DNA of 14,195 bases from Candidatus Heimdallarchaeota archaeon (GTDB lineage Archaea; Asgardarchaeota; Heimdallarchaeia; Heimdallarchaeales; Heimdallarchaeaceae). Numbering within the stretch: the stretch's first letter is position 1; the number at the start of each line of letters is the position of its first letter. Below, piece by piece: positions 9,168 to 14,195 of the stretch. The translations under genes and the position numbers were made by a program. The notes below the pieces were generated by a model. That model made no database searches and was not told where the DNA came from. It saw nothing but the letters and a program-made list of their open reading frames with translations. The stretch covers positions 1-14,195 of the forward strand of contig JAEOTE010000156.1 of NCBI GenBank assembly GCA_016839945.1, read 5' to 3'.

Positions 9168-9668
9168 GTGATTGATCTTCAGGAATTCATTTCATACCTT
9201 TCCGATCATGATTTCACTCTTTCTTCAGGTGTTCCTTGTTCTTATTTCAAGGATCTGTTAATCAACTTAGAAAAAGATCCTGATATCTACTATGTCCCAG
9301 CTACTCGTGAAGATGAAGCTGTTGGTATAGCTTCTGGCTATTTCTTAGGAGATGGCAAGAAAAGCTTCCTTATCATGCAAAATTCCGGTTTAGCTAATAT
9401 TGGAGATGCTCTAACCTCACTAGCTCAATTGTACAAGATCCCTATATTATTATTTGTAAGTTATAGAGGATTAGAACCCGACAATGATTTCCCTGAGCAT
9501 TCAATCATGGGTGAAGTTACAGAAAGTGTACTTGAAGCATATAAAGTTCCATATTGGAATCTTGAAGAAAGTAATTGGATAAAAACTCTTGATTTAGCCA
9601 TTAATAAAATGGATAAGACTTCATTACCTGTGTGCTTACTTGTAGAAAAAGGAGTGCTAAGCGAATGA
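9168..9668 (+). CDS. comD: Sulfopyruvate/phosphonopyruvate decarboxylase alpha subunit (ComD-like, ThDP N-terminal domain)
   Basis: GVPCS, PATREDEAVGIASG, MQNSGLAN, IPILLFVSYRG and IMG motifs. Substrate is not resolved from sequence. Confidence 0.78.
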   Translation: MIDLQEFISYLSDHDFTLSSGVPCSYFKDLLINLEKDPDIYYVPATREDEAVGIASGYFLGDGKKSFLIMQNSGLANIGDALTSLAQLYKIPILLFVSYRGLEPDNDFPEHSIMGEVTESVLEAYKVPYWNLEESNWIKTLDLAINKMDKTSLPVCLLVEKGVLSE

Positions 9669-10231
9669 AAGGTGCTGAAGTAATTTCCAAGCTGAATAAT
9701 GTTCTTTCTGGAGAGGAATTGATTGTCAGTTCCAATGGCAATGTTAGTCGTCAAGCATTCCATTTACTCCCTCAACCTCAGCTCTACCTTAGAGGTAGTA
9801 TGGGTCTTCCTGTTCCTGTAGGTTTAGGTTTAGCTATAGCATTACCAGGAAAAGACATTATCGTTTTGACGGGAGATGGAAATTTCTTAATGGGATTGAG
9901 TTCCATGGCAACTGTAGCTTTTCTTAAACCACTGAATCTCAAAATCATCATTTTGGATAATGAACTTTATTCAACTACAGGAGGACAAGAAACAGTCTCT
10001 TCTAACATGGGTTATTTGGAACTTGTTTTGGGGATGGGTGTTCAAAACATCAATTCGATAGATTCCATAGAAAAAGAAGATGTTATAGAGAAGATTCTTT
10101 CCGATACAATAAAAGATCCAGGTCTGCAAGTTTTACATATAAAGGTTGAAGAAGATACTATTAACTTGGAGAACATTCCCTGGCATCCAGTTGAGATCAA
10201 AGAACGATTCTTGAAACAACTAGACATTTAG
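9665..10231 (+). CDS. comE: Sulfopyruvate/phosphonopyruvate decarboxylase beta subunit (ComE-like, ThDP C-terminal domain)
   Basis: ATGA overlap with the comD stop (ATG 9665). GSMG, GLGLAIA, GDGNFLM...ILDN (ThDP motif) and TGGQET are present. Confidence 0.78.
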   Translation: MKGAEVISKLNNVLSGEELIVSSNGNVSRQAFHLLPQPQLYLRGSMGLPVPVGLGLAIALPGKDIIVLTGDGNFLMGLSSMATVAFLKPLNLKIIILDNELYSTTGGQETVSSNMGYLELVLGMGVQNINSIDSIEKEDVIEKILSDTIKDPGLQVLHIKVEEDTINLENIPWHPVEIKERFLKQLDI

Positions 10232-10250
10232 ATTTAGTTGGAAGGTAGAA

Positions 10251-10258
10251 CTTAAATA
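10251..10258 (+). promoter_or_regulatory. TATA box for a probably leaderless MoaD/SAMP transcript
   Basis: CTTAAATA ends 23 bp before ATG 10281, the expected spacing if transcription starts at the ATG. No SD is visible. Confidence 0.5.
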
Positions 10259-10280
10259 TTTTTTAACATAGAAATAATCA

Positions 10281-10562
10281 ATGAAGATCAATGTTCAATG
10301 CTTTGGACAAGTAAGATCAATAACAAAAGAAGCGATTGTGTCTATAGATATTCCAGATAAAATTTCTATTGTTAAAGCGTTAGATATTTTTGTTCAAAGT
10401 TTTGGGGAAGAAATGGAAAAAATCCTCTATAGTGATGGAAAGCTTAGAAAATTCTATTTCATTCAAGTGGATAAGAAAAATGTAGAACATGAAGAATTAG
10501 ATGATTTTATTCTCGAAGATGCTCAAACAGTATCTATTATTCCTTTTGTAGCAGGTGGATAA
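10281..10562 (+). CDS. MoaD/ThiS/SAMP-family ubiquitin-like sulfur carrier
   Basis: 93 aa, MKINVQCFG start, C-terminal VSIIPFVAGG di-glycine. Confidence 0.92.
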   Translation: MKINVQCFGQVRSITKEAIVSIDIPDKISIVKALDIFVQSFGEEMEKILYSDGKLRKFYFIQVDKKNVEHEELDDFILEDAQTVSIIPFVAGG

Positions 10563-11203: not shown

Positions 11204-12145
11204 TTATCTCTTTCTTTTTTCCTTTCTTCTTTGTTTTTCCCTCTTTAACCTTTCTTTCTTATATTTCTTTAACATGAGTTTGTCTAATTGTTCATCTGTT
11301 AAATTTGGAGGATTTAATAGAGGTTCAGGATTTTCTATTAATTCTTTAAAAAGCTCAATTGTTGGACCAGTATAGATTCCTGGTGCTATTCTATCATCTA
11401 TAGTTACCTTTAATTCCATTATTTTGCGAATATCAACCTTTTCAGTTTCTTCATCTATAACTTGAATTTTACGTATTTTTCCTAATGTTATTAAAACACC
11501 TGTTGTTCCAAATTCAAAGAGATGATGATATACTGCTGGAATTCCTATTGAACCCAAATGAGCAATGAATGCAGTAGAAAACATTGGTATATCTTTGGTA
11601 AGTGCATAAATTGGTATGTTGTGTTCATCTGTCCATCTCATGAACCAGAACATGAATCTAATAACAAACCTAGGCATTGCTCCCCAGAATTTAATATCTT
11701 TTTCATTTGGGTTTACTCCATGTCTAGCTTCGTAGAGATGTTCATTTACAATATTCTGGACTGTTTCCAATGTATCAAAGGGATCAAACTCAATCATGGC
11801 GTTTATTTCTTCCCCATCTTCTGATTTTTCTTTATTGACAACAAAAGAAATAATAATCTGATTTCGTTGCCATAATCTCCTTCCAGATACGAAACGGTTA
11901 ATTTTAGGACGTAAAGCTGATGTTCTAACACCTGCTGCTAGATATATCTGAAATAGTGTTAATTTATCTTCTTCATTCTTACCGTTGTTGTATTTTTCTA
12001 GGAATTTGTATGTATTAGTAAGATCCACCTGTGTTTTGTAGAAAATTTCACTTGATGATTTCCTAGGCATTATGTAAAATTCCATTTCATGAAATTTTGA
12101 GGTTTTAACCAATTCTGCATCAGGTCTTCTTGGCATGTTTTTCAC
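11204..12145 (-). CDS. Stand-alone 2-oxoacid dehydrogenase E2-like acyltransferase catalytic domain (no lipoyl domain)
   Basis: RPKINRFVSGRRLWQRN, STAFIAHLGSIG, VYHHLFEFGT, ITLGKI and TIDDRIAPG (at the DHRxxDG position). Start is GTG 12145 or ATG 12136. Confidence 0.85.
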   Translation of the reverse strand: MKNMPRRPDAELVKTSKFHEMEFYIMPRKSSSEIFYKTQVDLTNTYKFLEKYNNGKNEEDKLTLFQIYLAAGVRTSALRPKINRFVSGRRLWQRNQIIISFVVNKEKSEDGEEINAMIEFDPFDTLETVQNIVNEHLYEARHGVNPNEKDIKFWGAMPRFVIRFMFWFMRWTDEHNIPIYALTKDIPMFSTAFIAHLGSIGIPAVYHHLFEFGTTGVLITLGKIRKIQVIDEETEKVDIRKIMELKVTIDDRIAPGIYTGPTIELFKELIENPEPLLNPPNLTDEQLDKLMLKKYKKERLKREKQRRKEKRKR

Positions 12146-12713: not shown

Positions 12714-12763
12714 TTTAAATAGAAGATGAAAAAGTGTAATCTTGAGCTTTATTGGCTGGTGGA
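12714..12763 (+). promoter_or_regulatory. TATA box (TTTAAATA 12714-12721), predicted TSS about 12744, and SD (GGTGGA 12758-12763) of the repeat-peptide gene
   Basis: Canonical archaeal spacing; the SD lies 8 nt before ATG 12772. Confidence 0.6.
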
Positions 12764-12771
12764 TAATAGAA

Positions 12772-13002
12772 ATGAAAAGTAAAACTAAGAAATTACTTGG
12801 CGTATTATTTGTAGTATCATTTATTGGAATAACAGCAAGTGTGATCGCTTGTGCAGGTCCAACAGGTGGATATCCTGATGAACCCTTAGGTCATACTGCA
12901 GGTCCAACAGGTGGATATCCTGATGAACCCTTAGGTCATACTGCAGGTCCAGACGGGGGATATCCAGACGAACCGATTAGTCATACTCGAATATATGTAT
13001 AA
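12772..13002 (+). CDS. 76-aa secreted precursor peptide with three tandem 15-aa cores
   Basis: MKSKTKKLLGVLFVVSFIGITASVIAC + AGPTGGYPDEPLGHT x2 + AGPDGGYPDEPISHT + RIYV. Good SD and TATA. Copy 3 carries four synonymous codon changes, which supports coding status. Confidence 0.85.
   Translation: MKSKTKKLLGVLFVVSFIGITASVIACAGPTGGYPDEPLGHTAGPTGGYPDEPLGHTAGPDGGYPDEPISHTRIYV
12852..12986 (+). repeat. 3 x 45-bp tandem repeat (coding)
   Basis: 12852-12896 and 12897-12941 are identical; 12942-12986 is diverged. Confidence 0.97.
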
Positions 13003-13045
13003 TGTGTAAAAAAATTCATGCTGACGTGAAATAATCGCCAGAAAA

Positions 13046-13400
13046 ACCCCACCCCTTTCCTCGGCGAGAGAAGGAAACCTGGGGCGTCTTAGAGAGGTCA
13101 TAGACGCCCATTAGGTTTTCATAAGGGGTGATATCCACAAGCAAATAGAACTCAAGCAAGGGGTAAAAAACGGGTCAAACCGAAAAAAAACTTTCGAGGT
13201 CTATAACTGAGAGAAATCCTACGAAGGCAGAAATCCTTGGGGATTTTTCATAGAGATCTTGTACAGAGTTCGCTACGTTGAATCTACGTGCAGGTTCTCC
13301 TGATCGAATTCTGTACGCTTGATCTCTTTGTCAGTTTATCTATCTTGACCCTACAATCTATCTATCCACCAACCAACCATAGAAATATGGGGGTCAAAAA
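13046..13400 (+). ncRNA. Large structured non-coding RNA / cis-regulatory leader of unrecognised family
   Basis: At least 10 nested helices found by eye, e.g. 13050-57/13123-30, 13073-81/13112-20, 13082-89/13102-09, 13172-78/13345-51, 13205-10/13331-36, 13252-58/13321-27, 13261-72/13305-16. G-U pairs work only on the + strand. Visibly GC-richer than other intergenic DNA here. Confidence 0.7.
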
Positions 13401-13401
13401 A

Positions 13402-14195
13402 ATGGAAAAACTTGAAAACATGACAAATTCAGACAAAAGAATACTGCAAATCTTGCAGAATTATCCACTAGAACCTTTTTCTTCAATGGCAAAGAGAGTG
13501 GAAATTTCTCCACAAACAATGATTCGAAGAGTAGAGAATCTAAAGAGTCGCAATATACTTCGCAATGCTATAGCCTCTTTCGTCCCTGAACGTATTGGTC
13601 TTACTAGATTTAGCGTTATTTTTGATATTTCTCAACTCCACCAGTTTACGCTTTTACAAAACGCTATTTCTGAACACAATTACATACGTGCATACAATCG
13701 ATTTTATGGCGAAAAGTTTGGCATACAAGCAAATTTCGATGTCCCAATGAATGTAAATGGAGTATTCACAAAATTCTTAGATTACTTAGTAAACGAAGAA
13801 TTCTGTGATGGTTATACCATATTCAAATCTAAAGGTCATCGTTTTTCTAAGCCAGCACCTATAACTATCTACAGTCAAGATCCAGAACCTTTTGATATCA
13901 TTTCATTCTGGCAAAAAAGAGTTAAAGCCAATTCTGAATTAAATGGTGTTAGAAGCGCTGTGACTGTTAAAAACGGAGAAATCATTATTGTGACTGATGA
14001 AGGAGAAAAACCCATTGAACCTTTACATCTAAGACTACTTCGAGATCTAACACGAGAAACTGCAAATGGACATAGGATTGGAATTCGCACACAACAAACA
14101 GAGCTAATTAATAACTACAGAGATCTGTATAAAAGCTTAGGTAAGAAAATAAGACTTACACCTTCAGAAGAGCACTTATTCAACAACCTTAGCGA
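13402..14195 (+). CDS. Lrp/AsnC-family winged-helix transcriptional regulator, probably tandem-domain (partial, more than 264 aa)
   Basis: Hand translation is open to the window end: MEKLENMTNSDKRILQILQNYPLEPFSSMAKRVEISPQTMIRRVENLKSRNILRNAIASFVPERIGL (Lrp HTH + linker), a RAM-like domain, then a second helix-1-like segment PIEPLHLRLLRDL. SD GGGGGT at 13389-13394. Alternative in-frame ATG at 13387. Confidence 0.88.
   Translation, partial: MEKLENMTNSDKRILQILQNYPLEPFSSMAKRVEISPQTMIRRVENLKSRNILRNAIASFVPERIGLTRFSVIFDISQLHQFTLLQNAISEHNYIRAYNRFYGEKFGIQANFDVPMNVNGVFTKFLDYLVNEEFCDGYTIFKSKGHRFSKPAPITIYSQDPEPFDIISFWQKRVKANSELNGVRSAVTVKNGEIIIVTDEGEKPIEPLHLRLLRDLTRETANGHRIGIRTQQTELINNYRDLYKSLGKKIRLTPSEEHLFNNLS

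Follow-up and report, generated by a model that had tools for sequence, protein, structure and literature searches.

In a genus of Candidatus Heimdallarchaeota, a gene for a small secreted peptide is followed, after a 400-nt spacer, by a gene for an AsnC-type regulator, and the locus raises the question of whether the RNA transcribed from this spacer controls translation of the regulator by exchanging pairing partners over its ribosome-binding site. We analyzed one such locus in a window of 14,195 nt, by which we mean the whole stretch of DNA under study; it is the entire contig of a 3.0-Mb archaeal metagenome-assembled genome. A previous inspection of the letters of the window (hereafter the sequence-only reading) had noticed that the heptamer TTGACCC (13345–13351) has two perfect partners, GGGTCAA at 13172–13178 and again at 13391–13397, and had proposed that these form an anti-Shine-Dalgarno (anti-SD) switch, with the regulator translated when the upstream partner closes an RNA domain (domain 2) and silenced when that domain is disrupted or cleaved away. 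We examined this proposal by RNA folding, by comparison with orthologous leaders, and by controls drawn from shuffled sequences and from other genes of the same genome.

A structured RNA restricted to one genus

The spacer between the peptide gene (12772–13002) and the regulator gene (from 13402) folds beyond its shuffles (z = −5.2), and it contains a structured RNA of ~370 nt that is always located between the secreted-peptide gene and the AsnC-type regulator gene. The same gene order with a homologous spacer is present in 17 other genomes of the genus and in two further metagenome contigs, giving a comparative set of 20 leaders (the window and 19 orthologs) that fall into about eight clades. 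A covariance model search located the RNA in 18 of the 25 genomes of the genus, as a single copy in each, and in none of 22 other genomes of the order, six of which belong to other genera of the family and 16 to other families. Matches in an exact-pattern scan of 185,579 species genomes were confined to this genus (17 records), and a metagenome scan added just two new variants of the RNA. No Rfam family (Rfam 15) reaches its gathering threshold anywhere in the window, a permissive Rfam search of 12950–13450 returned chance-level matches only (E 4.8–9.7), and a tRNA/tmRNA scan returned none. The RNA is a new, genus-restricted structured RNA. RNase P RNA and SRP RNA were considered as identities and ruled out, as both are located elsewhere in the genome, the RNase P RNA being archaeal.

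RNAalifold applied to plain MAFFT alignments under-called the structure, and a hand-set structure, covariance models and a model-fitted alignment were used instead. The covariance model of the 5′ domain recovers 20 of 20 leaders. Across these sequences, 92% of cells in the 5′ domain are paired, 13 pairs are changed on both sides, and none of 500 shuffles is as good, figures that are flattered by the fitting of the alignment to the model. In the 3′ domain, the long hairpin covaries in clades F–H, with 11 pairs changed on both sides. The invariant blocks of the leaders include AUCGCCAGAAA..CCCCACCCCUUUCCUC, the GAGGUC hairpin loop, CAAGGGGUCAAACC and UUAGAGGUCUA. The coordinates of all features in the window are collected in Table 1.

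The motif CAAGGGGUCAAACC is interrupted in the window by an 11-nt insertion or partial duplication, which is unique to the window species among the 20 leaders. The second half of the interrupted motif contains the first GGGTCAA, and the model aligns 13158–13170 to the motif; the insertion may free the second copy for the upstream pairing of TTGACCC (helix A, below).

Three side observations concern the architecture of the leaders. In L006, L008, L013–L015, L017 and L018, the 5′ segment GCCAGAA is able to pair with the UUCUGGC that otherwise makes up hairpin P4; the resulting alternative 5′-domain fold is the predicted minimum free energy (MFE) structure in several orthologs. An SD-like word, GAGGUC (or GGGGUC), is repeated in the RNA: it stands in the loop of P3, in UUAGAGGUCUA and in the invariant motif, and it is the real ribosome site of clades A, B and F. 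In the window it is found at 13093–13099, 13196–13201 and 13391–13395, and it is found in all orthologs too. A small open reading frame (ORF) that follows UUAGAGGUCUAAAUG in clades F–H was rejected as a gene: its AUG is absent in the other clades, and the stretch is a conserved hairpin.

Table 1. Features of the spacer RNA and of the regulator start in the window
Feature	Position	Strand	Basis
5′ domain: P1 (ACCCC/GGGGU), P2, P3 hairpin with GAGGUC loop, P4	13033–13170	+	covariance models R1, R2
Invariant motif CAAGGGGUCAAACC, split here as CAAGGGGU-aaaaaac-GGGUCAAACC	13157–13181	+	invariant in 19 orthologs
5′ partner of strand X (state A, helix A), closes 3′ domain	13172–13210	+	constrained folds
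3′-domain core: hairpin 13211–13249 and long hairpin 13252–13327	13211–13327	+	MFE; long hairpin covaries in clades F–H
Strand X, pyrimidine-rich, UCAGUUUAUCUAUCUUGACCCU, contains TTGACCC, two mutually exclusive partners	13331–13352	+	folds; sequence unconserved in orthologs
Site B, complementary to peptide leader/ribosome site 12752–12770, in loop of helix B	13357–13376	+	duplex −23.2 kcal/mol
Local hairpin masking ribosome site when helix A forms	13361–13406	+	−9.9 kcal/mol in isolation
Shine-Dalgarno GGGGGU, 7 nt 5′ of ATG 13402	13389–13394	+	fits congener 16S 3′ end
3′ partner of strand X (state B): ribosome site, AUG, codons 2–4	13390–13412	+	folds
Regulator gene, N-terminal AsnC-type winged helix-turn-helix, cut by contig end	13402–14193	+	PF13404, 1.4e-7

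The regulator gene and its start codon

The Pfam match to PF13404 covers residues 7–48 of the regulator, and the ortholog L003 matches the same family at 7.9e-8. The full-length regulator ortholog (L003:5-1354, minus strand) has 450 aa, of which only the first ~50 residues match any Pfam family, and no RAM (AsnC_trans_reg) domain is detected at E ≤ 0.01 in either the 264 aa encoded in the window or the 450-aa ortholog. The label “Lrp-like”, which the gene had first been given, is thus apt for the AsnC-type helix-turn-helix and refers to that domain alone, since a RAM domain was not found.

The 3′ end of 16S rRNA in the genus reads ...GGAUCACCUCCU, with which the GGGGGU sequence upstream of the regulator can form six pairs, one of them a wobble; this end was taken from congeners, the 16S rRNA of the window genome being unassembled. 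In one congener, L057, foreign sequence that may be an intron or insertion stands just before the 16S 3′ terminus, where the others read GGAUCACCUCCU. An SD sequence is located 7–9 nt before the aligned ATG in 20 of 20 leaders. It varies by clade (GGGGGUCAA, GAGGUC(A/U)A, GGAGAA or GAGGAAC), and the stretch GGUCAAAAAAAUGGA is common to the window and clade F.

ATG 13402 is aligned with the ATG of all 19 orthologs. The other candidate that had been named, ATG 13387, is in frame and has neither an SD nor a conserved counterpart, the upstream AUG of the orthologs being out of frame or followed by a stop. As judged by the aligned leaders, the regulator start is ATG 13402, not 13387, and a leaderless start at 13387, which the sequence-only reading had named beforehand as fatal to its own proposal, is unlikely.

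A pyrimidine-rich strand with two exclusive partners

All three heptamers were confirmed by reading the sequence, as was the overlap of the downstream GGGTCAA with the regulator SD. The 14.2-kb window contains four copies of GGGTCAA or its complement, where 0.95 would be expected, three of them within 226 nt. In the folds, the two pairings are extended as follows: state A (helix A) has 17 bp, 13172–13178:13345–13351, 13197–13200:13338–13341 and 13205–13210:13331–13336; state B (helix B) has 18 bp in three tiers, 13345–13352:13390–13397 (8 bp), 13339–13343:13402–13406 (5 bp, including the AUG) and 13333–13337:13408–13412 (5 bp). Closure of the 3′ domain (domain 2) by GGGTCAA 13172–13178, as claimed, is seen both in the MFE fold and in folds constrained to contain helix A. 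The second pairing encloses site B in its loop, again as claimed, and is longer than had been reported (8 + 5 + 5 bp), covering the AUG. Because the heptamer pairings are parts of larger stacks, the switching element is the 22-nt strand 13331–13352 (strand X), which can pair with only one of its two partners at a time; one of the partners covers the SD, as in a translational riboswitch platform.

The energetics were evaluated as nearest-neighbor predictions on RNAs of 400–700 nt, without pseudoknots. In the fold of 13030–13425, the heptamer pairs of helix B have a probability of 0.64–0.85 and the AUG tier 0.7–0.84; the masking state amounts to ~0.85 and helix A, in the RNA alone, to ~0.14. In isolation, the hairpin 13330–13415 folds at −17.9 kcal/mol. 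Constrained ensemble energies are −125.9 kcal/mol for state A and −127.3 kcal/mol for state B, a gap of ~1.5 kcal/mol. From this near iso-energy a bistable RNA is predicted, in which most of the ensemble has its ribosome site occluded.

The sequence-only reading placed the ON state of the regulator in the closed form of domain 2, and for the window the predictions contradict this. With helix A enforced, opening the region from SD to AUG still costs 10.0 kcal/mol, and 9.6 kcal/mol when the conserved 5′ domain is enforced as well, so that the SD is accessible in neither of the two states. The site remains costly because of a local hairpin with a GAAA loop, composed of 13361–13365:13402–13406 (UCUAU:AUGGA), 13372–13374:13392–13394 (ACC:GGU) and 13377–13381:13386–13390 (CCAUA:UAUGG), and domain-2 closure alone therefore does not expose the site. 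A clean ON/OFF switch by domain closure is not supported in the window. The sequence AUCUAUC occurs three times between 13338 and 13366 (13338–13344, 13356–13362 and 13360–13366), two of the copies being alternative UCUAU partners for AUGGA.

Comparison with orthologous leaders

Neither TTGACCC nor a positional homolog of helix B is present in any of the 19 orthologous leaders, the nearest relative, L002, included. No anti-SD:SD helix is conserved or covaries among the homologs, in which both partners and registers differ by clade; because of these differing registers (alignment columns were read by eye), positional covariation for helix B is impossible. In most orthologs, P1 is the predicted helix between two invariant segments, GGGGU of CAAGGGGUCAAACC and the 5′ ACCCC, and since P1 never varies, covariation can neither support nor refute it. 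The predicted partner of GGGGUCAA in the orthologs is this 5′ ACCCC rather than the anti-SD strand; as a closing partner, GGGGUCAA is used in the window only, and marginally in L010.

A closing helix of the 3′ domain does recur. It is formed by the sequence just 3′ of the motif and a pyrimidine-rich strand 40–85 nt before the ATG: AAGAAACAA/UUGUUUCUU in clades F–H, GAGGU/ACCUC in clades C and E, and a long stack in clade B. The heptamers are the form that a conserved closing-helix position takes in this lineage, and they do not constitute a conserved expression platform. Across the orthologs, the predicted closing-helix pairs trade off with those that the strand makes with the ribosome site, the balance being close within clade H, and in these models several clades also appear bistable.

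For clades C, F, G and H, the folded leader is predicted to leave the ribosome site open (1–5 kcal/mol), and an RNA cut at −80 to mask it (7–14 kcal/mol); the difference of 5–12 kcal/mol is larger than the value of 3.0 that marks the 95th percentile among 155 control genes. Open when folded and masked when cut is, as modeled in these four clades, the behavior that the sequence-only reading had proposed. An open site at 1–4 kcal/mol with the 3′ domain folded is predicted for most orthologs, those of clades F and H among them.

Controls on masking and pairing

In its local context, opening the region from SD to AUG in the window costs 14.9 kcal/mol, more than any of the 378 SD-led gene starts of the same genome that served as controls (mean 5.6, 99th percentile 13.2 kcal/mol). 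In the full leader the cost is 11.3 kcal/mol, which corresponds to about the 94th percentile of 155 controls and is not extreme. When 45 foreign ribosome-site regions were swapped into the leader of the window, strand X made 4.2 ± 3.4 expected pairs with them vs 17.8 with its own ribosome site, and none of the 45 was as high. Swaps of ribosome sites between clades had a weak effect (8.2 pairs with the own site vs 6.3 ± 2.6).

Shuffles of the local strand with the same composition already mask by ~6 kcal/mol, the own values standing at z ~1–2, and the complementarity of the strand to its own site is no better than to the 378 other ribosome sites (percentile 0.08 in the window, 0.19–0.76 in other clades). 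The results of the shuffle, swap and other-site controls therefore indicate that much of the masking is generic to a pyrimidine-rich strand beside a purine-rich ribosome site. The heptamers themselves were evaluated in 20,000 dinucleotide shuffles of 13030–13385 that left the ribosome-binding region unchanged: 9.1% of shuffles contain a perfect 7-nt complement of that region, and 0.15% contain the full triple, in which the same heptamer also has a copy upstream.

The upstream peptide gene

The gene 5′ of the spacer RNA encodes a small protein with a signal peptide. Its leader and ribosome site (...AGCUGGUGGA...AUG, 12752–12774) are complementary to a segment of the 5′ domain, site A (13132–13156), which consists of P4 plus AAUUGAACU. 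This complementarity is found in 13 of 13 orthologs that have the leader on the contig (among L002–L018), at −15 to −24 kcal/mol, and it explains the conserved GAACU block.

The second site of this kind, site B, is strong only in the window and in L006 (−24.1 kcal/mol in the latter); degenerate copies are present in the equivalent loop of L004 and L005, and the site is absent from clades B, F, G and H. In a model of a 682-nt transcript (12744–13425), the pairing of the leader with site B reaches a probability of ~0.95, that of helix A increases to 0.93 and that of helix B drops to 0.01, an exclusivity that is partly due to the no-pseudoknot rule of the folding algorithm. The opening cost of the regulator site decreases from 11.3 to 8.7 kcal/mol in the same model. 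In L006 (clade E), the leader is predicted at site A rather than at site B, and the SD hairpin persists.

Farther upstream, an ORF on the minus strand (11204–12145) encodes a partial 2-oxoacid dehydrogenase acyltransferase catalytic domain (PF00198, 1.3e-11) and adjoins split ORFs for the N- and C-domains of a TPP enzyme and a ThiS-family ORF (9168–10562).

Proposed role and alternative explanations

Given what is shown above on the RNA family, its structure and coordinates, its energetics and its unconserved sequence, we give even chances to the reading that we favor: at the 3′ end of a new structured RNA specific to the genus, a lineage-specific bistable arrangement masks the ribosome site and probably damps translation of the regulator. 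Strand X would choose between 13172–13210, closing the 3′ domain, and the SD, AUG and first codons of the regulator, and the balance would be set by whatever stabilizes closure of the 3′ domain. Closure alone would be insufficient because the second, local hairpin must open too, and the likeliest effect would be damped translation of the regulator, possibly conditional. We infer both that the regulator is translated from the long leader and that the alternative pairing affects its translation. With regard to the sequence-only reading, its observation of three heptamers and a second pairing is confirmed, and its interpretation as an ON/OFF switch of translation is partly supported. The anti-SD/anti-anti-SD layout stands as an exclusive three-element arrangement over the ribosome site with states of nearly equal energy, but it lacks TTGACCC and helix B in all 19 orthologous leaders, it leaves the SD of the window masked in either state, and it is unaccompanied by a match to a known riboswitch or attenuator family.

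The complementarity could instead be incidental, the RNA having another role (masking of the peptide leader via site A, or a stand-alone function) and helix B being a by-product of no regulatory consequence. We take this to be a serious, if somewhat unlikely, explanation. It would account for the finding that any real ribosome site pairs with strand X about as well as its own, for the want of covariation in helix B, and for the recurrence of GAGGUC/GGGGUC within the RNA, by which the similarity to a ribosome site may be inherited; the complementarity of site A in 13 of 13 orthologs would moreover give the RNA another job. It is harder to reconcile with local masking that in the window exceeds all 378 control genes and all 45 foreign swapped sites, and with a pairing that falls in register over both SD and AUG. 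A strict two-state switch, in which TTGACCC paired with 13172–13178 is ON and paired with 13391–13397 is OFF, so that the regulator is switched OFF once domain 2 is disrupted or cleaved, is in our view unlikely. Its layout and near iso-energy are real, the heptamer triple is rare among shuffles (0.15%), and the 5–12 kcal/mol effect of a cut at −80 in clades C, F, G and H points the same way. However, the opening cost of 9.6–10 kcal/mol with helix A enforced argues against it, as do the restriction of GGGGUCAA as closing partner to the window (marginally L010) and the unconserved sequence and register, and the truncation effect is largely generic to a pyrimidine-rich orphan strand (shuffle null ~6 kcal/mol).

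Two further readings place the control elsewhere. In one, the peptide leader (12752–12770) would occupy site B and block both helix B and the local hairpin, leaving strand X to the closing helix and partly freeing the regulator site; modeled in this way, the locus would be a bistable device new for archaea, in which peptide gene and regulator might be translated in alternation from one transcript, without protein or ligand. The long-transcript model favors such coupling through the high leader:site B probability, the rise of helix A at the expense of helix B and the decrease of the opening cost to 8.7 kcal/mol, and L006 has a strong second site by the regulator ribosome site, with degenerate copies in L004 and L005. 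We nevertheless consider it quite improbable: clade E (L006) does not bear it out, the leader there preferring site A; clades B, F, G and H are missing site B; part of the exclusivity is given by the no-pseudoknot rule; 8.7 kcal/mol is still high; and the two genes would have to be co-transcribed. In the other, the regulator would have its own promoter or be leaderless at ATG 13387, and the upstream RNA would lie outside its mRNA. ATG 13387 is in frame, and the A-rich region before the ribosome site in many orthologs could hide a TATA-like box. This reading has, we believe, only a slim chance: ATG 13387 has no ortholog counterpart, the equivalent AUG being out of frame or followed by a stop; the SD 7–9 nt before the aligned ATG is conserved in 20 of 20 leaders; the only TATA-like run of clade H lies so near that a transcript started from it would lack the SD; and no A/T-only box is present upstream of 13387. 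Returning to the masking arrangement that we favor, if the masking helix works, RNA refolding would be a means by which an SD-using Heimdall archaeon adjusts a transcription regulator, and the helix would provide the first functional handle on a genus-specific structured RNA of ~370 nt that links a secreted-peptide gene to a regulator. If it fails, the locus is a caution that a pyrimidine-rich strand before a purine-rich ribosome site will resemble an anti-SD.

Relation to known systems

To our knowledge, natural RNA switches acting on translation are almost unknown in archaea, and our literature search found no such RNA and no translational RNA switch for Asgard archaea. Several systems invite comparison. 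RNA thermometers such as ROSE and fourU mask the SD in hairpins. The regulator start is similar in that SD and AUG lie in imperfect hairpins (13361–13406 or 13333–13412), with ribosome entry only after melting; it differs in that the masking strand has a competing upstream partner, and nothing points to temperature as the signal. No thermometer family motif was matched in Rfam, although an SD hairpin (−9.9 kcal/mol) exists. In translational attenuation by leader-peptide stalling (ermC, cat), alternative hairpins decide whether a downstream ribosome site is free, as they may here; unlike in those systems, ~400 nt separate the end of the upstream ORF from the ribosome site, and strand X is not overlapped by any short leader ORF.

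The mRNAs of type I toxins (hok/Sok) are controlled by folding back via their fbi and tac elements. The resemblance lies in long-range pairings that mask ribosome sites in a long mRNA, and in refolding after a change at one end as the proposed trigger. A hok-like long-range 5′–3′ pairing that masks a ribosome site is predicted for the upstream peptide gene, and not for the regulator. The difference is that no toxin or antisense RNA was identified here (no toxin-like ORF was seen in 12742–14193) and that two separate genes flank the RNA.

Translational riboswitch platforms, such as that of the E. coli thiM TPP riboswitch, combine an anti-SD with an anti-anti-SD element. Compared with this type of platform, the window differs in the absence of an aptamer-class match, in a ribosome site that is masked in both states and in elements that are not conserved; it differs further in the organism, an Asgard archaeon, and in the unusual size of the platform (~230 nt). 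The two are alike in their central arrangement: one strand pairs either with a partner in an upstream domain or with the SD and start region, and the two folds are close in energy.
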